Shown in pieces: positions 2,662 through 11,764 of a stretch of DNA of 12,719 nucleotides. Position numbers and translations under genes: made by a program. The stretch is from Candidatus Heimdallarchaeota archaeon (GTDB lineage: Archaea > Asgardarchaeota > Heimdallarchaeia > Heimdallarchaeales > Kariarchaeaceae), in NCBI GenBank assembly GCA_015523565.1, contig WAKA01000089.1, forward strand, positions 1 to 12,719, in the 5' to 3' direction. How positions within the stretch are numbered: position 1 is the stretch's first letter; each line of letters opens with the position of its first letter. The notes under the pieces are model-generated. The model had not been told where the DNA came from. It was given only the letters and a program-made list of their open reading frames with translations, and ran no database searches.

Positions 2662-3846
2662 CTAACGTATTTTCAAAAAAGTGAATAACAATATCACATA
2701 CAAGGTAATGGAAAATATTAACAGAGATTCACTTAATGAAAAGAAACTGTATACAAAACCGACATACAAAGTGGAAAGTGAACGCCCCAAAGAAACAAAG
2801 ACCCCCAATGCTCCAAGAGCCGCCCCCCTTTTTTCGAAAGGGGCAAGTTTTGTTGCACCCCTGTTTACCGCGGTGTAGGCAGTAAGCATCCCTGCGAAGA
2901 AGATTGTTTGCACACCTATCAAAAAGAAAAAGTTTGAAACAAATGTGCTTGAGGCAATTGCCATTGAAACAATAGTCAGACTTAGAAAAACCACATTTTG
3001 AAGGTTAAGATGGTCTGAAATTGAACCTAAATATGGTTTGAAAAAAATCAGGATCAGAGTTGAGATCAATGAAATTTCGGCAACAGTTCCTTTAGAATAT
3101 CCATAAGATACAATAAGTGCTGGAAAAAAGACGATAAATCCAAATGAGGAAAAGGAGATAATGATTTGCAAAAGGTAGACATTTCTTAGAGATTTCATTT
3201 TGATCAGTTGGATCATTATGACAACCATATTCTTGAATGAATCCCAAAAATGCGAAAAATAATTGGTCGATAGATTTTCATGGTTTTTCGGCAAGGATTC
3301 AGGAAGGATGAATATTGCCAAGACCGTAAATAATGAACCAATCAATCCAACAATGAGAAAGACATTGTTCAATGTCAACTGCAATTGATCCAACAAATAT
3401 GAGGCCAGAATAGAGGCACTGATAACCCCAATATCCCCAGCTTGGAATATTTTTCCATTTGATTTTCCATAAGAGGCGAGGTTCACATCGCCAATATAGG
3501 AAAATGTGGCAGGCCAAAAGCTACTCATTCCAATTGCAAAACAGATAACACTAAAAAGAGCTCCAATCCAATTTTTGGAGTAAGAAAGAAGGAAAATGGA
3601 AATAGTATAGAGGGAAATCCCCATCACAATGATAGGTTTTCTTCCTGTAACTTGAGAGAGGTTTCCCAAAGGAATCCTCAAAGGAATCTGAAGAAAATTC
3701 ATTGACGATACAAGGACTGAGAGAATAATTGAAGAAAGCAATAGGTCTTTTTCAAAAAAAATGACAAGATATGTCCTATAAACGAAAGCCAAGAAATTTC
3801 CGAACAAAGTGACAATTCCCAATGATAGAATTGGCTGATGTTTCAC
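2662..3846 (-). CDS. MFS transporter (about 12 TM, DHA1/MFS_1-like, substrate unknown)
   Basis: MFS motif-A-like segments (PLGNLSQVTGRKPII; LGSISDHLNLQN), a 'PFEKRGAALG' loop and about 12 hydrophobic helices. The ORF track starts at GTG 3921, inside narK. GTG at 3846 (MKHQPILSLG) is preferred because it removes the overlap and lies 20 nt after a TATA-like box. Confidence 0.85.
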   Translation of the reverse strand: MKHQPILSLGIVTLFGNFLAFVYRTYLVIFFEKDLLLSSIILSVLVSSMNFLQIPLRIPLGNLSQVTGRKPIIVMGISLYTISIFLLSYSKNWIGALFSVICFAIGMSSFWPATFSYIGDVNLASYGKSNGKIFQAGDIGVISASILASYLLDQLQLTLNNVFLIVGLIGSLFTVLAIFILPESLPKNHENLSTNYFSHFWDSFKNMVVIMIQLIKMKSLRNVYLLQIIISFSSFGFIVFFPALIVSYGYSKGTVAEISLISTLILIFFKPYLGSISDHLNLQNVVFLSLTIVSMAIASSTFVSNFFFLIGVQTIFFAGMLTAYTAVNRGATKLAPFEKRGAALGALGVFVSLGRSLSTLYVGFVYSFFSLSESLLIFSITLYVILLFTFLKIR

Positions 3847-3866
3847 AATGATTGATTTACAGGATG

Positions 3867-3875
3867 AATTAAAAG
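3867..3875 (-). promoter_or_regulatory. Candidate archaeal TATA box (CTTTTAATT) for a leaderless MFS transcript
   Basis: Sits 20 nt upstream of GTG 3846. The identical 9-mer is 22 nt upstream of the DOMON ATG. Confidence 0.5.
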
Positions 3876-3901
3876 AATTGGAAATAGGTAATTTTGTGTG
3901 A

Positions 3902-5221
3902 TCAGTGATTGTTGACTGCACGATGGAGTAACCAAGTCAATAAGAAACAAATTATTCCGAGAATTGTAAAGACAACATATCCTCTTGCATATCCAACAGT
4001 ACCCATTTGATCAACAAAGAAACCAAGGATTGGAGGAATGACAAAACCACCAAATGCGCCAAGTCCGCCAACCCAGCCAGAGGTTCCACCAACCGCATCA
4101 GGTACTGCTTTCGGAACAAGCTTGAAAACGGCTGCATTCATAGCTCCCATTCCCAAAGCCAGTATAATCATTCCAACAATTGCCAATGAATAAGAAGAGG
4201 TATCAAAGATCAGAATAAGGGATCCAAGAATAAGGATGGCAATACCACCATACAATGTTTTGTAACCACCGATCTTGTCAGATAATTGACCAGTATAGAC
4301 TCTCATAAGGGAACCAACAACAATGAATATCCCATTCAAAATAAGAGCCATCCCAAGTTTGACATCATCAAAAAGATTAATTGGACTTGGACTGAAGAGT
4401 TCGACCCAATAAGTCTTGAACCAAGTTCCAAGTGCGATGAAACCCCCGAATGAGGTGAAGTACAACCCAACAAGAGCCCAGGTTTCCCAATGGCGACCAG
4501 ATGCCTTGAGGCTGTCAACCAATTTATATTTCGGGAAAAGCTCCTGACCATGCTTCCTTGCTATTTCCTCCGCCTTGGATTTTTCAACGCCTTGGTCTTT
4601 CAATTGGAAGGACCATGCATCTTTACCCATATAATAATAGATAACGGTTCCTATTATGAGAAGAACCAACCAAAGCAGATATGATTTGGCTACACCCATA
4701 GTGGCAAGGGATATTGCCATGATAAATGAGAAAATGCCTGGGGCAAGATTTCCAATTCCTGCATATTTTCCAAGAGCACTTCCCTGTTCAGATTGCTTGA
4801 ACCAATAGGATACCTGACTTATTCCAACAGAGAATGTTGCAATTCCACATCCTGCCAAGAAACCAAAGAGAAGCAATAGAGGATAGGATGAATTGGTCAG
4901 TGAATTGTTTTCAAGACTGAGACCAAGGAAATAGAGACCAATCAATCCCACAATTGAAAGCAATAATAGGATCAAAATTGGCTTTCTTCCGCCGACTTCA
5001 TCCGTCCATGCAGAAAATGGGATTCTCAGCAAGGATCCAGAAAGGTTTGGCATTGCAACCAATAGACCTGCAAGGAATCCAGAGAGTTGCAGAGCCGCCT
5101 TGAACTCAGGAGCTGTTGCACCCATGGCGACAACAGCCGCAAAGCCGATGAAAAAGCCGATTGTAGCACCCCAAAGTCCTTCTTGGGGAGTTCCACTTAA
5201 TTTATAGTTTTCTTCTGCCAT
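3902..5221 (-). CDS. narK: Nitrate/nitrite porter (NNP family, MFS)
   Basis: Conserved Arg-bearing segments GSLLRIP and GSLMRV. Nitrate-signature regions (FSVGISQVSYWF..QGSALGKYAGIGN; AVFKLVP..VGGTSGWVGGLGAFGGF) and 'FTSFGGFIAL'. Directly downstream of narI, with RBS AAGGTGA at 5228-5234. Confidence 0.93.
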   Translation of the reverse strand: MAEENYKLSGTPQEGLWGATIGFFIGFAAVVAMGATAPEFKAALQLSGFLAGLLVAMPNLSGSLLRIPFSAWTDEVGGRKPILILLLLSIVGLIGLYFLGLSLENNSLTNSSYPLLLLFGFLAGCGIATFSVGISQVSYWFKQSEQGSALGKYAGIGNLAPGIFSFIMAISLATMGVAKSYLLWLVLLIIGTVIYYYMGKDAWSFQLKDQGVEKSKAEEIARKHGQELFPKYKLVDSLKASGRHWETWALVGLYFTSFGGFIALGTWFKTYWVELFSPSPINLFDDVKLGMALILNGIFIVVGSLMRVYTGQLSDKIGGYKTLYGGIAILILGSLILIFDTSSYSLAIVGMIILALGMGAMNAAVFKLVPKAVPDAVGGTSGWVGGLGAFGGFVIPPILGFFVDQMGTVGYARGYVVFTILGIICFLLTWLLHRAVNNH

Positions 5222-5258: not shown

Positions 5259-5942
5259 TCAGGATTTTGATTTGTTCCAAATGACGATCTGAGGGGATCG
5301 CCATGCATACTTAATTGGGTAAAAGATGAGATGACCCAATCTAGTGAATGGGATAAGGGCGATTAGTACCATACCATTGACAAAATGAAGGTGCAGGAAC
5401 CAATCATTTCCTGCAAAACCAGCAACAGCGGTATACTGTGGATTGAGTGTGACAATGGATCGAAGCCATGGAACCATGGTTGTAATGAACCATGAAGATC
5501 CGAATCGGTATTTGATCGCGATGGTAAGCCCAGTAGAAATTTGGGTAGTCAAATCACCAAGCACAATCCAGTCCAAGAGAGTTGTCGTAGCTCGAACCCT
5601 TGGATTTGTGATGCGGCGATAAATCAGGATGAGCATGCCGATAATGGAAAAAGCGGCAAGCAACCAGCCAGTGTATTCCCATATTGGTCGATTACTGTCA
5701 GTGACAAGTAAATTGAATAGGTCAGGGAATAAAATGCCTAAAATGTGCATTGTCAGTATCATGATTATTGAATAATGCCAGAAGTATGACCCGACCAGCA
5801 ATGAGTTTTTATTGCCTAAAAACTCAGAGGATTGGCTGGAGAAGGTATACTTGTCATAGCTGATTCGATATATCCACCCTATGATTGCCAAGGTAATTGC
5901 AATATAAGGGAATATCACATAAAATAGAAAATCTACTGTCAT
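5259..5942 (-). CDS. narI: Respiratory nitrate reductase/NXR gamma subunit, di-heme b membrane anchor (227 aa)
   Basis: Family motifs YVIFPYIAIT and TFSSQSSEFL. Four candidate heme-ligand His in FWHYSIIMILTMHILG and LHFVNGMVLIALIPFTRLGH, and C-terminal YAWRSPQIV. Start re-placed to ATG 5942, which has AGGAGG (5950-5955) 7 nt upstream and a TAATG overlap with the narJ stop. Confidence 0.95.
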   Translation of the reverse strand: MTVDFLFYVIFPYIAITLAIIGWIYRISYDKYTFSSQSSEFLGNKNSLLVGSYFWHYSIIMILTMHILGILFPDLFNLLVTDSNRPIWEYTGWLLAAFSIIGMLILIYRRITNPRVRATTTLLDWIVLGDLTTQISTGLTIAIKYRFGSSWFITTMVPWLRSIVTLNPQYTAVAGFAGNDWFLHLHFVNGMVLIALIPFTRLGHLIFYPIKYAWRSPQIVIWNKSKS

Positions 5943-6604
5943 TATTGTTCCTCCTTTTTCTTTCCTTTTCTGATCCATTGATCGATCTTGTTCTCTTTCT
6001 GGATGGGTGAGTCATGGACTGGGAGAACAAGGACATCATTGGAAATCTTTTCTTCACCTGTCAGGAAATTTAGCAGGGAAGAAATAAGCGAGTAATAGGC
6101 CAGTCCAGCACCAACAGAAAGGGGGCGATCTTCAGGTCTCACTTTTGTCCAGACAATACGTCTCAGGCAGGGGATCACAGCATCGTCGATCAATTCCCTA
6201 GCCAGTTCAGACTCTGGATTGTCAGCAATGAATTTTAAGATAACCCCCAAATGATCCGGAAGTTCACCAATTGGTTCAAAATTGAATTCACGGTATCTTT
6301 TTATCAATTCCACCAAAAATATGCTTCGCAAATAGCTTTCACCAAACAAATGGTAGCCTACATATGGAGCAATATGAAAATTCAGTTCAAAGATTTCGGT
6401 GTAGAATGACTGAAGTTCATCAAGGTCTTTGTCACGGATGAATTCCAGAAATGTTGAGAATTCCTCTTTTGAAGACCCTTCCAAATTGCCCATGCATCTT
6501 TCAGCCACTGCCAAATAATCCTGTTGTGGATAAAGGAAAAGAGTGTGAAATTGGTCAAGTACAGAAGACTTCTTAATTTTTGGCTGGGCTGAAATTGTCA
6601 ACAC
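5942..6604 (-). CDS. narJ: Nitrate reductase molybdenum-cofactor assembly chaperone (delta subunit, 220 aa)
   Basis: Motifs YTEIFEL..APYVGYHLFGESYLR..LVEL...Y and GELPDHLGVILKF. Start re-placed to GTG 6604, 1 nt after the narH stop, with AGGAGGT (6611-6617) 6 nt upstream. Confidence 0.93.
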   Translation of the reverse strand: MLTISAQPKIKKSSVLDQFHTLFLYPQQDYLAVAERCMGNLEGSSKEEFSTFLEFIRDKDLDELQSFYTEIFELNFHIAPYVGYHLFGESYLRSIFLVELIKRYREFNFEPIGELPDHLGVILKFIADNPESELARELIDDAVIPCLRRIVWTKVRPEDRPLSVGAGLAYYSLISSLLNFLTGEEKISNDVLVLPVHDSPIQKENKIDQWIRKGKKKEEQ

Positions 6605-6605
6605 A

Positions 6606-8117
6606 TTACCACCTCCTTGAAGGTTCAGATTTCTTTCCAAACCCACCAGAAGTTTTTCTGACAAATGGGTCAATGACTGTTTCAATTTGGACTTCACGTG
6701 AAATTGGTGGGATAACAAATCTTTCTTCCATAGTTGGCAAGCTTGTCAATTGGAATATTGCTTCTGCTTCCTCGGCATTTGTTTTCCCAACACGGAAGGA
6801 TTCTTCCACCTCTTCAGGGGTAATGTCCTTGAGTTCTTGTGATCTCTTATAGATACGAACAGCCATCAGTTTCCGGTAAACTTCCATTACCAAATCCTCA
6901 TTTCCAGCACCGAAAAGTGAAGCCATGTATTTGATTGGCACACGTGCCTTTTCAATATCACTCATCTGTGGTTTGGAACTAAGATCGTCCGTAACCTGAT
7001 CATAGACACCATTCCGTTTTTGACCAATGATTGGAAGCAAGGGGGGAACATAAAACAGCATTGGCAATGTCCGATACTCTGCATGCAACGGAAGGGCTAT
7101 TTTCCATTGCTTGACAAACTTATAGACAGGTGAGTTCTGTGCTGCCTCAATCATGCCATAAGAAAGATTGTTTTTCTTTGCAGCTTCAATCACCTCTGGG
7201 TCAAAGGGATCCATTATCAGTTCGTTTCTCATCATTTCCACAAGATTTGCATCATCCACTGCGGCTATTTCAGGAACCTTATCTGCATCATACAACAATA
7301 CACCCAAGTAACGAATTCTTCCGACACAGGAATGGAAGCAGGCAGGTGCCTGACCAGTTTCTAATCTTGGATAACAAAGCAGGCATTTTTCTGATTTGCC
7401 AGTACTCCAATTGTAATAGACTTTCTTGTAAGGACAACCTGAAATGCACATCCTCCAACCTTTACAATTGTCTTGGTTTATGAGGACAATTCCATCCTCA
7501 CCTCTCTTATAGATTGCACCTTGAGGGCAAGCCGCGAGACAGGTGGGGTTGACGCAATGATTACAAATTCTTGGTAGGTAAAAGAAGACAAGTCTTTCAA
7601 GTTCATTCAGTTGTTCTTTTTCAAGGTCGGAAAGTCCCTCTAGATTGATATCGTTTTTGGCATAGATTTCAGAACCACCAAGGTCATCATCCCATGAGGG
7701 ACCCGATTTTATATCGATATATTCACCAGTCACTCTTGAGATAGGTTTTGCCACAGGTTGATCCGATGAGATTCCTGCCTTGAACAAGTGTTCGTAGTCA
7801 TAGGTCCATGGTTCATAGTAATCGTCCATTGTTGGCAGGTAAGGGTTTCCAAAAATGTTCTTGCCAAGGGATGCAAATTTTCCATTGACTTTCAGGATGA
7901 CCTTGTCACCTTTCTTGACCCATCCGCCACCGTATTTTTCTTGATCTTCCCATTTCTTTGGGAATCCAGTTCCAGGTTTTGTTTCCACATTATTGAACCA
8001 TGCATATTCAACACCTTTCCTATCAGTCCAGATGTTTTTGCATGAAATGCTGCATGTGTGGCATCCAATGCATTTGTCTAAGTGAAAAACCATTGCAATT
8101 TGTGCTCTTATGTCCAT
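6606..8117 (-). CDS. narH: Nitrate reductase/nitrite oxidoreductase beta (Fe-S) subunit (503 aa)
   Basis: Four Cys groups: CIGCHTCSISC, CNHCVNPTCLAAC, CKGWRMCISGC (Trp replacing Cys, the [3Fe-4S] pattern) and CLLC...CFHSC. Family N-terminus MDIRAQIAMVFHLDKC, with GGTGA (8123-8127) 5 nt upstream of ATG 8117. ATG 8123 is an alternative start. Confidence 0.97.
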   Translation of the reverse strand: MDIRAQIAMVFHLDKCIGCHTCSISCKNIWTDRKGVEYAWFNNVETKPGTGFPKKWEDQEKYGGGWVKKGDKVILKVNGKFASLGKNIFGNPYLPTMDDYYEPWTYDYEHLFKAGISSDQPVAKPISRVTGEYIDIKSGPSWDDDLGGSEIYAKNDINLEGLSDLEKEQLNELERLVFFYLPRICNHCVNPTCLAACPQGAIYKRGEDGIVLINQDNCKGWRMCISGCPYKKVYYNWSTGKSEKCLLCYPRLETGQAPACFHSCVGRIRYLGVLLYDADKVPEIAAVDDANLVEMMRNELIMDPFDPEVIEAAKKNNLSYGMIEAAQNSPVYKFVKQWKIALPLHAEYRTLPMLFYVPPLLPIIGQKRNGVYDQVTDDLSSKPQMSDIEKARVPIKYMASLFGAGNEDLVMEVYRKLMAVRIYKRSQELKDITPEEVEESFRVGKTNAEEAEAIFQLTSLPTMEERFVIPPISREVQIETVIDPFVRKTSGGFGKKSEPSRRW

Positions 8118-8122
8118 TATCA

Positions 8123-11100
8123 TCACCACTCCAGTTTCTTTAATTTCTTCACAAGGACGAAGGTATCCCTATTGACACCCACAGGTCCCCAATAATTGAA
8201 GCCATAAGTCCATTGTGCATAGCCCCCTGCAAGCAAGAGAGGGTTCAATTTAATACGTGTCAAACTATTATGTCCACCGCCTCTTCGTCCACGTTCATTG
8301 GATTTCGGTACTGAAACAGTACGTTCGGGGGAATGGTAGATCCAACAGGTGCCACGTGGAATACGGGAACTGACAATGATACGGGTGACAACAACACCAT
8401 TGTCATTGATCACCTCAACCCAATCATTGTCCTCAACGCCAATCTTTTTGGCATCATCAGGATGAATCCAAGCGGGATAGCAGCCACGACTGAGTTCTTG
8501 CATCCTCAGGTTGTCACCATAGGTAGAGTGAATGTGCCATTTACCATGTGGTGTAATATAGTTGAGCAGGACACTTTGATTTTTATCTGTACTGTCAACA
8601 TCACCAGTGACAGATGGATCGAGTTTTGGCTTGAAGGTTGCAAACTGTTCACCAAAATCAATATACAATGGGTGATCAAGATAGAGGTGCTGCCTGCCTG
8701 TCAGGGTTCTCCATGGCACAAGCTTGTCAATGTTTTGTGAATAACCTGCATATGCCCTTCCTTCATTGACAATACCAGACCAGAAGGGAGAAGTCAGAAC
8801 CCTGCGAGGTTGTTTTTTGAGATCTTCAAATGTGTATCTGACACCCCTGTTCTTTTCAGCAAGCTCTGCGAGGTTGGTCAATCCCGTCTTCTTCTCAAGA
8901 TCCAAAAATGCACGGTAAGCAAGTTCACCATTTGTTTCAGGTGCAAGAGCCAATATTAGATTGATTGCATCCAAGGCATCCTCAAGTCTTGGATAGCGGT
9001 TACCACCCCATTCAATAGCCCTCAAATGCTTTGGATCAGGAGATCGTGTGGTAGGTTGACTTGCCAAGTAATCATAAATGTCCTCGATTGGGAATTGGAT
9101 ACCATGAGCTTTGAGCCCATTAGCCCTTGCCTTTGGTCCATAGGAGATAAATCTCTTGTATAAATCAACATAATTTCTCTCCGTTATGGCAAGCTTAAAG
9201 CCTGTTTTGCCAGGGATATATTCAACCTCATCATATTTCCAATCCCTGATTTCAGGTTGCATCATTTCATCAGGGGAATCATGGGCAAGCGGCTTAGTAA
9301 CAATATCTTTGACAGGTTCAGGCAGGTATTCTTCTGCAAGCTCACTTACTTTTTTCGCAAACGATTTGAATATGTCCCAATCGGAACGGGCTTCCCAAGC
9401 TGGAGGGGTTGCTTGACCCAATGGGTGAACAAATGAATGCATATCTGTAGTATTGAGGTCATTCTTTTCATACCACATTGCAGTGGGCAAGACGATGTCT
9501 GAATAAAGTGCAGAAGTATCCATCCTGAAATTGATGTCAACAACAAGATCCATTTTTCCAGCAGGAGGATCACGGTATACAACATCCTGCAATTTATCCT
9601 TGGCTTTCTCTTCCTTGATGAGATTATCCTTTGTACCAAGATAATGTCTCAAAAAGAATTCATGCCCTTTTGCACTTGACATGAGTGCATTCCCCCTCCA
9701 AATGAAGAAGACACGAGGCCAGTTTTCTGGTGCATCTGGATCCTCAACTGAAAGCTTGAGCTCTCCCTTATTGATTTTCTCAGCCACAAATTTCTTGATA
9801 TCATCATCGGAAGTGTATCCTGCCTCGTTTGCCTCTTGAATAATTTGGAGTGGGCTCTTGTTGAATTGAGGATAGAATGGCATCCAACCATTCCTGACTG
9901 CACGGGCAATGTGATCAGCCACATGACCCTTTGCATATTTAGCATCTCCAGGAACTGACGCATAATCCGTGAATTCACCCTCATACCTGAACTGATCTGA
10001 ATGAATATAGTGCCAAATTGGAGTTTGTTGCACACGAGGTGGTGCAACCCAGTCTGTAGCCATTGCAACAGACAACCAAGATGTCATAAGTGTCAGTTTC
10101 TCCTGACCAACATAGTGATTAAGACCACCACCGTTTCTACCCACACAACCTGTAAGAATCAAGGCAGTGATGGGACCACGATACATGAGGCTATTGTAAT
10201 ACCAATGATTAACCCCTGCACCAGTGATAACCATGGATCTGCCTTCTGTCAATTCTGCATTAGTAGCAAATTCACGTGCAAACTTAACAACTGTGTCCTT
10301 TCCAATTCCTGTGAATTTTTCTTGCCAAGCAGGGGTATAAGCGATGTCCGCGTCGTCATATGATGAGGGATATTCTCCATCCAATCCTCTAGGTACACCA
10401 AAGTGACCAAACAAGAGATCCATTGAAGTGGTAACGTAAGCAGTCCCATTCTCTGTCTCAACTTTCTTGACAGGCACACCACGGACAATGGTTTTCTTTT
10501 CACCATATTCAGGGAATTCGACCATCAAGACTTCATCATGATCACCCAAAAGAGATAGTTGTGGATCAATGTCCTTCCCATTGACATCTTTCAGATTCAA
10601 GTTCCATTTACCCCTATCCTCCTTGGCATGCCTGAAACCCAATGTTCCAATGGGCAATACGATTTTCTTCTCTTTTTCATCAAATACAACAAGCTTCCAA
10701 TCCCCGTTTTCAGCATCCTTGAATTCTTTCAATCGATTTGCCCTAAAGAACTGCCCAGGAGAGTAATTGTTTCCTTTCTTGACCAATTCAACCAAGAAAG
10801 GTGAATCACTGTATTTCTTCAAGTATTCTACAAAGTAAGGCACTTGTCGGTCGACGAAATATTCCTTGAGAATTACATGGTTTACAGCACACCACATTGC
10901 AGAATCCGTTCCTGCCTTTATTGGGATCCACCAATCAGAGAACTTAGCGGCCATGCTAAAGTCAGGTGCGATACAAACAAACTTTGCGCCGACATATTTT
11001 GCCTCTGAAATGAAGTGAACATCAGGAGTCCTTGTCATGCTAAGATTTGATCCCATTGAGACAATGTATCTTGCATTATACCAATCAGCACTTTCTGCAA

Positions 11101-11764
11101 CATCAGTTTGTTCACCCCAAGTTTCGGGGAATGAATTTGGCAGGTCACAATACCAATCATAGAAACTTAGGTTAACCCCTCCCAACAATTGCAGGAATCT
11201 ACTTCCACCACCATAGGAGAGATAGCTCATGGCTGGAATGGGTGAAAATCCAAAAATCCTGTCAGGACCATATTTTTTAATGGTGTAGATCAAGGACACA
11301 GCAATTATCTCAAGGGCTTCATCCCAGGATATCCTTTTGAAACCGCCCATCCCCCTTGCCTGCTGATAGGATTTCCGATTGTTTTCGTTTTCCACAATTG
11401 AAGCCCATGCGTCAATCAAGTCCTTATGTTGCTTCTTTGCATTTCGCCAAAGGTTAAACAAAGTTTTCCTGATGTAAGGATATTTTACACGCAATGGACT
11501 GTAGACATACCAAGATGCGGAAATACCTCTTTGACAACCTCTTGGTTCATAAGGTGGAAGATTGTCTTCCAATAGGGGATAATCGGTTGCCTGCAATTCC
11601 CATGTGATTATTCCATCTTTCACAAAGATATTCCACGAACAGCCACCAGTACAATTTACCCCATGGGTGGATCTGATGACTTTGTCATATTGCCACCTGT
11701 TTCTGTAGAATTCTTCCCATTGTCTGCTCTTTGGATTTAATAGGTCAGTTATCCAGTTTCCCAT
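8123..11764 (-). CDS. narG: Type II DMSO-reductase-family Mo-bisPGD alpha subunit (nitrate reductase NarG / Nitrobacter-type NxrA), cytoplasmic, 1213 aa
   Basis: FS0 ligands H34-C38-C42-C77 ([10 protein letters not shown]...PRGC) and Mo-ligand Asp region [24 protein letters not shown]. Further motifs [39 protein letters not shown] and [12 protein letters not shown]. No twin-arginine signal. RBS GAGGTGA at 11769-11775. Confidence 0.97.

Follow-up and report, generated by a model that had tools for sequence, protein, structure and literature searches.

Does an Asgard archaeon carry a nitrite oxidoreductase (NXR) of the kind found in Nitrobacter? The question is raised by a 12,719-nucleotide stretch of DNA, referred to here as the window, which is contig WAKA01000089.1 of a Candidatus Heimdallarchaeota genome (GCA_015523565.1). 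It contains a nar operon whose catalytic alpha subunit (NarG) and iron-sulfur beta subunit (NarH) look like NxrA and NxrB. If true, an archaeal nitrite oxidoreductase would bring a new domain of life into nitrification, and no archaeal nitrite oxidiser would have been known before its host, whose electron outlet would do without cytochrome c. Or, is the resemblance the result of common descent within a larger family of nitrate reductases?

The evidence points to the latter. The operon very probably encodes a complete membrane-bound, cytoplasm-facing quinol:nitrate oxidoreductase of the NarGHI type. The trees place its alpha and beta subunits in Asgard-specific lineages beside a bacterial clade dominated by Chloroflexi, and they place the cytoplasmic NXRs of Nitrobacter and Nitrococcus as late offshoots of that same bacterial clade. 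The resemblance to NxrAB thus appears to be one of shared ancestry in a large NarG subfamily and is therefore no evidence of nitrite oxidation.

Placement of the alpha and beta subunits

A sequence-only reading of the window had assigned these subunits to the Nitrobacter-type NXRs rather than to the enteric nitrate reductases. That the alpha subunit is not enteric is clear from identity: window NarG is 46–47% identical to E. coli NarG and NarZ and 60% identical to Nitrobacter NxrA. The corresponding values are 63–66% for the Chloroflexi and their allies, 62–63% for Thermomicrobiales, 59.9% for Thermus and 57–58% for Nitrococcus. The beta subunit is 49% identical to that of E. coli and 57–61% to those of Nitrobacter and Nitrococcus, whose alpha subunits together span 57–60%. 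Nitrobacter NxrA is itself 69–72% identical to the Chloroflexi proteins that are 63–66% identical to window NarG, which makes the window protein the more distant party, and it is 76–77% identical to some Burkholderiales proteins.

The references for the trees were the two nxrA copies of Nitrobacter sp. Nb-311A, a Nitrococcus metagenome-assembled genome (MAG), two physiologically uncharacterised Thermomicrobiales MAGs used as stand-ins, Methanoperedens BLZ2, and some 60 further named bacterial NarG genes, all located by scanning with a degenerate pattern and then looking up whole genomes. The scan targeted QTDVCES and returned NarG of many phyla, a sample biased to Cys at that site. Thermus, E. 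coli NarG and NarZ, Cupriavidus, Rhodococcus, Haloferax pNarG and ClrA came from plasmid records; among the 60 listed of 506 matching plasmid records there was no Nitrobacter nxrA. Nitrolancea hollandica, Methylomirabilis, Thiocapsa KS1 and Firmicutes NarG lie outside this set. A FastTree phylogeny of 106 rows was rooted on pNarG/ClrA; it alone included five extra representatives from a 50%-identity library, with P0166 and P0177 drawing a long-branch warning. IQ-TREE was run on 52 rows under LG+C20+F+G4 with posterior mean site frequencies (PMSF), once quickly and once carefully with ultrafast bootstrap. Approximately unbiased (AU) tests used a 28-row set under LG+G4; the groups were delimited after the first tree, and the hypotheses themselves came from the sequence-only reading.

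In all NarG trees the proteins with a long N-terminus (enteric, Cupriavidus, Rhodococcus) are split from a superclade with a short one. Inside the superclade, the Asgard proteins and the NXRs belong to a single clade with 100/100 support, and Thermus, Aquificaceae, a Bacteroidota/Gemmatimonadota group and others fall outside it. This clade consists of several Asgard lineages and of a bacterial clade, also supported at 100/100 (24 rows), with Methanoperedens at the bacterial base. Many supported nodes separate the base of the bacterial clade from Nitrobacter and Nitrococcus NxrA, whose neighbours are Burkholderiales and Thermomicrobiaceae sequences. Grouping of the Asgard proteins with the NXR subclade was rejected (AU p = 3.2e-11), and so was grouping with Thermus and Aquificaceae (AU p = 2.9e-63); Asgard monophyly was not rejected (AU p = 0.22). 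The NarH tree agrees with the NarG tree and is less resolved. The Nitrobacter-type assignment thus holds as far as the joint clade with NxrA, which has Thermus outside it and shares the SPDPxxxR insert described below, and fails at the NXR branch itself. Nor does the protein branch with Thermus or with enteric NarG.

The features on which that assignment had been based are borne out by the reference sequences. Nb-311A NxrA has a short N-terminus, CTGGC, DLPTSFPE, NHWYYN, a PDxRHMR insert and KLEW, and in E. coli NarG the N-terminus is long and the motifs read CTGSC and DLPPASPQ. All the features named for the window are present, but most of them are not specific to the Nitrobacter type. The short N-terminus and the C-terminal KLEW occur throughout the short-N-terminus superclade, whose members include Bacteroidota, Gemmatimonadota, Aquificota, Chloroflexota and others. 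Many of its proteins also have CTGGC and FPE, where Thermus has CTGSC and ASPE, and NHWYYN varies even between close relatives. The 8-residue insert SPDPxxxR, which precedes EWGGxRYP, is found in window NarG, in every Asgard row and in Methanoperedens, Chloroflexi, Nitrobacter and Nitrococcus; Thermus, Aquificaceae, Bacteroidota and E. coli do not have it. By this distribution it is a shared derived character of the wider clade of Asgard, Chloroflexi and NXR proteins (37 rows), not of the NXRs.

The NXR-bearing bacterial clade, Nitrobacter and Nitrococcus included, has states of its own near the active site and the C-terminus, namely WYAD and WGDQTDVCES, with an extra residue in GIFTRDT in its inner part. 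These states were defined from the present alignment and are not published markers. Window NarG has WYCD and GV-NRDT instead, without the states of the NXR-bearing clade or the one-residue indel, and at two of the three marker sites it resembles Thermus and E. coli. Since the cytoplasmic NXRs are late offshoots of so large a subfamily, motif likeness to NxrA is not usable to predict nitrite oxidation.

Two further archaeal cases touch on the placement. The NarG of Candidatus Methanoperedens sp. BLZ2 also has an archaeal host and belongs to the same subfamily (64% identity, short N-terminus, insert present). However, it branches basally in the bacterial clade and apart from the Asgard lineages, and has a NarC-like cytochrome c upstream, which suggests an acquisition separate from the Asgard one. 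Additionally, NarG and NarH of a genome of the window's own order, G038 (L140/L151), group with those of G074/G075 (L142, L143), which are of other families, and not with the window's family; the operons at L140/L151, L142 and L143 have no DOMON gene. This suggests either that the operon has moved between Asgard lineages or that it has existed in two versions since ancient times.

The operon and its host

The operon comprises seven co-directional genes on the minus strand, in the order DOMON-narG-narH-narJ-narI-narK-MFS (Table 1). The genes narG, narH and narI pass the NCBIfam equivalog cut-offs, the TIGR01580 alignment of NarG covering model positions 27–1233 of 1235, and narG and narH score far above anything that chance would give. 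The narJ-like gene passes only the Pfam cut-off (TIGR00684 gives 46.4 bits, under its cut-off of 59.35); its position and sequence are kept in Asgard relatives at 53–54% identity. Likewise, the TIGR00886 score of the NarK-like gene is under the subfamily cut-off, and in Asgard relatives this gene also follows narI, at 58–76% identity.

The cofactor sites are in place. NarG has the FS0 motif, RGCQRG and the molybdenum-ligand Asp in WYCDLP. NarH has four Cys groups, CIGCHTCSISC, CNHCVNPTCLAAC, CKGWRMCISGC and CLLC...CFHSC, in which CKGWRMC is the Trp-substituted Cys group for a 3Fe-4S cluster. In NarI, His56, His66, His186 and His204 are invariant in the alignment, and we take them to match E. 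coli NarI H56/H66/H187/H205. The N-terminus of NarG has no Tat (twin-arginine) signal, in contrast to Haloferax pNarG, which has RRTFLEG. This, together with the NarK-type transporters downstream, argues for an active site in the cytoplasm.

The motifs quoted in the sequence-only reading, the 1213-residue alpha subunit and the beta subunit, including HLDKCIGCHTCSISCKNIWTDRKG, were all found where it had placed them, and nxrX is absent as it had said: the spacer between narG and narH is 5 nt and contains no gene. Some gene starts need adjustment. The narH open reading frame (ORF) reaches a GTG at 8129, but translation likely begins at the ATG at 8117 (MDIRAQ...), and the listed narJ ORF extends to 6718, overlapping narH. 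Translation of narI probably begins at Met13 of the ORF as listed (MTVDFLFY), since in relatives a stop codon precedes the corresponding Met.

Table 1. Features of the window and of the other loci discussed. Coordinates without a locus handle refer to the window.
Feature	Coordinates	Strand	Evidence or remark
DOMON protein, 246 aa	11774-12514	minus	Pfam DOMON 60.6 bits; signal peptide and C-terminal anchor
narG, molybdopterin catalytic alpha subunit, 1213 aa	8123-11764	minus	TIGR01580 1485.8 bits (cut-off 1084.15)
narH, Fe-S beta subunit, about 503 aa	6606-8117	minus	TIGR01660 627.9 bits (cut-off 524)
narJ-like chaperone	5942-6604 (start uncertain)	minus	Pfam Nitrate_red_del 36.3 bits (cut-off 22.2)
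narI, di-haem b gamma subunit, quinol site	5259-5942	minus	Nitrate_red_gam 181.8 bits; TIGR00351 124.1 bits (cut-off 105.55)
NarK-like MFS nitrate/nitrite transporter	3902-5221	minus	TIGR00886 156 bits; MFS_1 120 bits
Second MFS transporter, subfamily unassigned	2662-3921	minus	MFS_1 90.6 bits
Beta-helix/NosD-like repeat protein, at least 876 aa	3-2633	plus	Runs off contig start
DOMON genes in four genomes of the window's family	L148:13485-14171; L149:14120-14806; L150:2404-2979; L152:3638-4249		Upstream of narG
Second DOMON copy, same-genus genome G051	L148:4742-5344		60% identical; just downstream of narK
DOMON paralogue, own-genome contig C96	L164:4231-4965	minus	57% identical to the window's
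ETF-QO-like oxidoreductase, contig C96	L164:2805-4118	minus	FAD/quinone-binding
394-aa protein with weak DOMON-like region and the 4Fe-4S and NrfD-type genes after it, contig C157	L162:5190-7851	plus	Runs off contig end
Three-gene set of a second molybdopterin oxidoreductase (1008 aa), own-genome contig C2	L163:3093-7875	minus	With NrfD and 4Fe-4S subunits
Candidatus Methanoperedens sp. BLZ2 locus	L115:1860-6360	plus	
nxrB copy, Nitrobacter sp. Nb-311A	L157:4892-6433	minus	Two overlapping ORFs, 295 and 207 aa

Following the established NarGHI model, menaquinol would be oxidised at the di-haem b subunit NarI, at the outer face of the membrane. The four Fe-S clusters of NarH would then relay the electrons to FS0 of NarG and on to the molybdenum bis(molybdopterin guanine dinucleotide) (Mo-bisMGD) centre. 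Nitrate would enter through the NarK-type transporter and become nitrite at this centre, the nitrite would be exported, and NarJ would carry out cofactor insertion. The DOMON protein would probably be an extra outward-facing haem-b subunit or an electron outlet on NarI, like Thermus NarC.

The same subunits, cofactor ligands, cytoplasmic orientation and equivalog models are found in NarGHI and NarZYV of E. coli (structure 1Q16). The E. coli enzymes differ in having a long N-terminal tail, CTGSC and DLPPASPQ, and in lacking the insert and an outer-face haem subunit. Nitrobacter and Nitrococcus share with the window the short N-terminus, CTGGC, FPE, SPDPxxxR and KLEW and the downstream narJ, narI and narK. 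An FKBP_C-type nxrX lies between nxrA and nxrB in Nitrobacter; Nitrococcus and the window have none, so nxrX is not universal among NXRs. One nxrB copy of Nb-311A is split into two overlapping ORFs, which may be a draft-assembly frameshift or a broken copy.

Two other genes share the window. The second MFS gene mirrors Thermus NarT in position, and no tblastn match to it was listed in the other loci searched, including those of the same genus, L148 and L149. The beta-helix/NosD-like gene is convergent to the nar operon, and its GC content is 32.5%, against 40–43% in the operon.

The window is the complete contig C89 of a genome of 3.57 Mb in 233 contigs, about 90% complete, in which all searches of the host reported here were made. 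The host falls in a kinship class of 83 species genomes in a genome-kinship search. It encodes a eukaryote-type actin (456 bits; archaeal control genomes gave no such match), and the named NarG proteins nearest to the window's are those of Heimdallarchaeota LC_2 and LC_3 and of one 'Methanobacteriota archaeon' MAG. A search for archaeal small-subunit rRNA found none assembled in the genome, so taxonomy is based on kinship groups, named homologues and the actin gene. By these the host is a Heimdall-class Asgard archaeon, which agrees with the archaeal origin suspected from the window alone.

NarG of the window's kind is found in nine of the 83 genomes of the class, a patchy distribution. Identity is 85% and 80% in two genomes of the same genus, where gene order is kept, and 76% and 66% in two of the same family, where an operon of the same order recurs; in other families of the class it is 62–65%. 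From this distribution, and from the GC and tetranucleotide values of the contig given below, the nar operon is judged native to the archaeal lineage.

Direction of the reaction and rival explanations

NarGHIJ in these archaea is already known. It has been reported in Hodarchaeales and Kariarchaeaceae (PMC10307638; bioRxiv 10.1101/2024.07.04.601786) and was inferred for the ancestor of Hodarchaeales (Eme et al. 2023, PMC10307638). The suggestion that a nitrate-reducing member would be notable is therefore overtaken by the literature. The published Heimdallarchaeia enzyme comes from the same archaeal class and is the same complex; NarG of Heimdallarchaeota LC_2 and LC_3 is 68% and 65% identical to the window's and belongs to the same Asgard lineages in the trees. 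In the available parts, the published accounts list narGHJ(I) and do not describe the placement beside the Chloroflexi/NXR clade or the leading DOMON gene. HC1, a Hodarchaeales strain in culture, has a nitrate reductase, accumulates nitrite as it reduces nitrate, and is an obligate anaerobic syntroph (bioRxiv 10.1101/2025.02.26.640444).

The host genome was examined for terminal oxidases and carbon fixation, as the sequence-only reading had proposed. It encodes two A-type haem-copper oxidase operons and a third COX1 homologue, and one RuBisCO large subunit. Cytochrome bd oxidase, NirK and NIR_SIR (the sirohaem nitrite/sulfite reductase domain) were not found, and phosphoribulokinase (PRK) gave no real match, only a 20.6-bit P-loop hit. 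The absence of PRK, NirK and NIR_SIR fits nitrite as end product and no Calvin-cycle autotrophy. By its gene content the host would fit a heterotroph that takes nitrate to nitrite, not a Calvin-cycle nitrite oxidiser. Contig C2 of the genome also carries a Psr/Ttr-like three-gene set in which NrfD and 4Fe-4S subunits accompany a second molybdopterin oxidoreductase.

Several points weigh against respiratory nitrate reduction as the role of the operon. Growth of HC1 was not stimulated by nitrate (bioRxiv 10.1101/2025.02.26.640444), and because nitrate gave this strain no growth benefit, 'respiratory' may overstate the physiological role. The parallel with HC1 is also drawn at the level of archaeal class, not of enzyme clade. 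The haem-copper oxidases mean that an oxygen-linked electron sink for nitrite oxidation exists, and at about 90% completeness of the genome the absences are provisional. Finally, Nitrobacter has the same layout of narI, narJ, narK and an outer-face haem protein, so that direction is unreadable from sequence, as had been said from the outset.

Could the enzyme nonetheless be a cytoplasmic nitrite oxidoreductase in vivo, oxidising nitrite at NarG and sending electrons through NarH, NarI and the DOMON protein to a haem-copper oxidase? The joint clade and the 8-residue insert are common to Nitrobacter and Nitrococcus NxrA, the layout equals that of Nitrobacter except for nxrX and the kind of haem protein, haem-copper oxidases are encoded, and DOMON proteins beside cox genes have been reported as putative electron carriers in these archaea (bioRxiv 10.1101/2024.07.04.601786). 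We nevertheless consider this highly improbable. The NXRs are derived tips in a bacterial sister clade far from the Asgard proteins, as the AU test against their union indicates, and the sequence states of the NXR-bearing clade are absent from window NarG. Nitrobacter and Nitrococcus are Calvin-cycle autotrophs, and phosphoribulokinase was not found in the host; the cultured relative HC1 reduces nitrate as an anaerobe, and the published metabolic reconstructions of these archaea are heterotrophic.

There is very little chance, too, that the contig is a mis-binned bacterial fragment, for example from Chloroflexi, with the archaeal assignment an artefact. The window is a whole 12.7-kb contig, its nar genes, at 40–43% GC, exceed the 38.6% of the genome, the operon taken by itself has a tetranucleotide correlation of 0.91, and Chloroflexi are the nearest non-Asgard relatives. 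But the contig as a whole has 39.2% GC and a tetranucleotide correlation with the genome of 0.966, at the 14th percentile of contigs and inside the genome's range. Moreover, the operon recurs, together with its lineage-specific DOMON gene, in independent genomes of this genus and family. The contigs of the relatives are as long as 80 kb, NarG similarity broadly tracks genome kinship, and no bacterial sequence is more than 66% identical. Mis-binning of C89 is thus unlikely. We give as little weight to another oxyanion (chlorate, perchlorate or selenate) as the physiological substrate in place of nitrate. NarG-type enzymes reduce chlorate in vitro, and the second MFS transporter has no assigned substrate. 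Yet NarG is well over the narG equivalog cut-off and falls far short of those set for the DMSO-reductase type II, selenate and ethylbenzene families, and the operon has a NarK-like transporter. Reductases dedicated to (per)chlorate and selenate, ClrA among them, are moreover type II enzymes of the periplasm and belong to the outgroup. Nitrate reduction by a NarGHI-type complex is the reading that we prefer.

The DOMON protein heading the operon

The gene order of the window equals that of Thermus thermophilus narCGHJIKT: an outer-face haem protein, narG, narH, narJ, narI and two MFS genes (PMC7694296). The first of these differs in kind. In Thermus, NarC is a di-haem cytochrome c, anchored in the membrane and facing the periplasm; it binds NarI and has been proposed to branch electrons to acceptors at the outer face (PMC7694296). 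Nitrobacter, Nitrococcus, a Thermomicrobiales MAG and Methanoperedens likewise have a cytochrome c gene at this place. A DOMON gene stands there instead, directly upstream of narG, in the window and in four genomes of its family, and in three Asgard genomes of other families neither DOMON nor cytochrome c was found there.

Only seven close homologues of the DOMON protein were found in a large protein collection. Met88, Met95 and Met100 and His67, His71, His176 and His185 are invariant in the homologues and are candidate haem ligands. The AlphaFold2 model has a mean confidence (pLDDT) of 75.9. Its best structural matches, at modest TM-scores of 0.4–0.5, are the haem-b gamma subunit of ethylbenzene dehydrogenase (2ivf_C), the cytochrome domains of cellobiose dehydrogenase and Kuenenia NxrC (7b04_O). 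The protein is probably an outward-facing haem-b protein. By analogy with what is proposed for NarC, it might be a real fourth subunit that passes quinol electrons via NarI to acceptors at the outer face; we put the chance of this at slightly under even.

Has NarC been replaced by a haem-b protein for want of cytochrome c maturation? This explanation was rejected: a Cytochrom_C_asm homologue is present in the host (49.5 bits). Cytochrome c biogenesis genes are also reported in relatives (bioRxiv 10.1101/2024.07.04.601786).

Other DOMON genes occur in the window's genome and close to it. In the same-genus genome G051 a second copy lies just downstream of narK, so the nar operon there is flanked by DOMON genes on both sides. 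A paralogue on contig C96 of the host adjoins an ETF-QO-like FAD/quinone-binding oxidoreductase, another quinone-linked enzyme. On contig C157, a 394-residue protein has a weak DOMON-like region (34% identical over 171 residues; Pfam E = 0.0065) and genes for a 4Fe-4S dicluster protein and an NrfD-type membrane protein come after it. The set looks like a quinone-interacting NrfCD/ACIII-like module in which a DOMON-like head may replace the cytochromes c.

The NarG subfamily that holds the cytoplasmic NXRs is very large and mostly uncharacterised, and extends over many bacterial phyla, Methanoperedens and Heimdall-class Asgard archaea. The nitrate reductase of the published reconstructions of the Hodarchaeales ancestor is confirmed here as belonging to Asgard-specific lineages, whose monophyly is not rejected. 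The less ordinary point is the predicted surface DOMON protein, which stands where bacteria have the cytochrome c NarC and is a candidate extra component of the archaeal enzyme.

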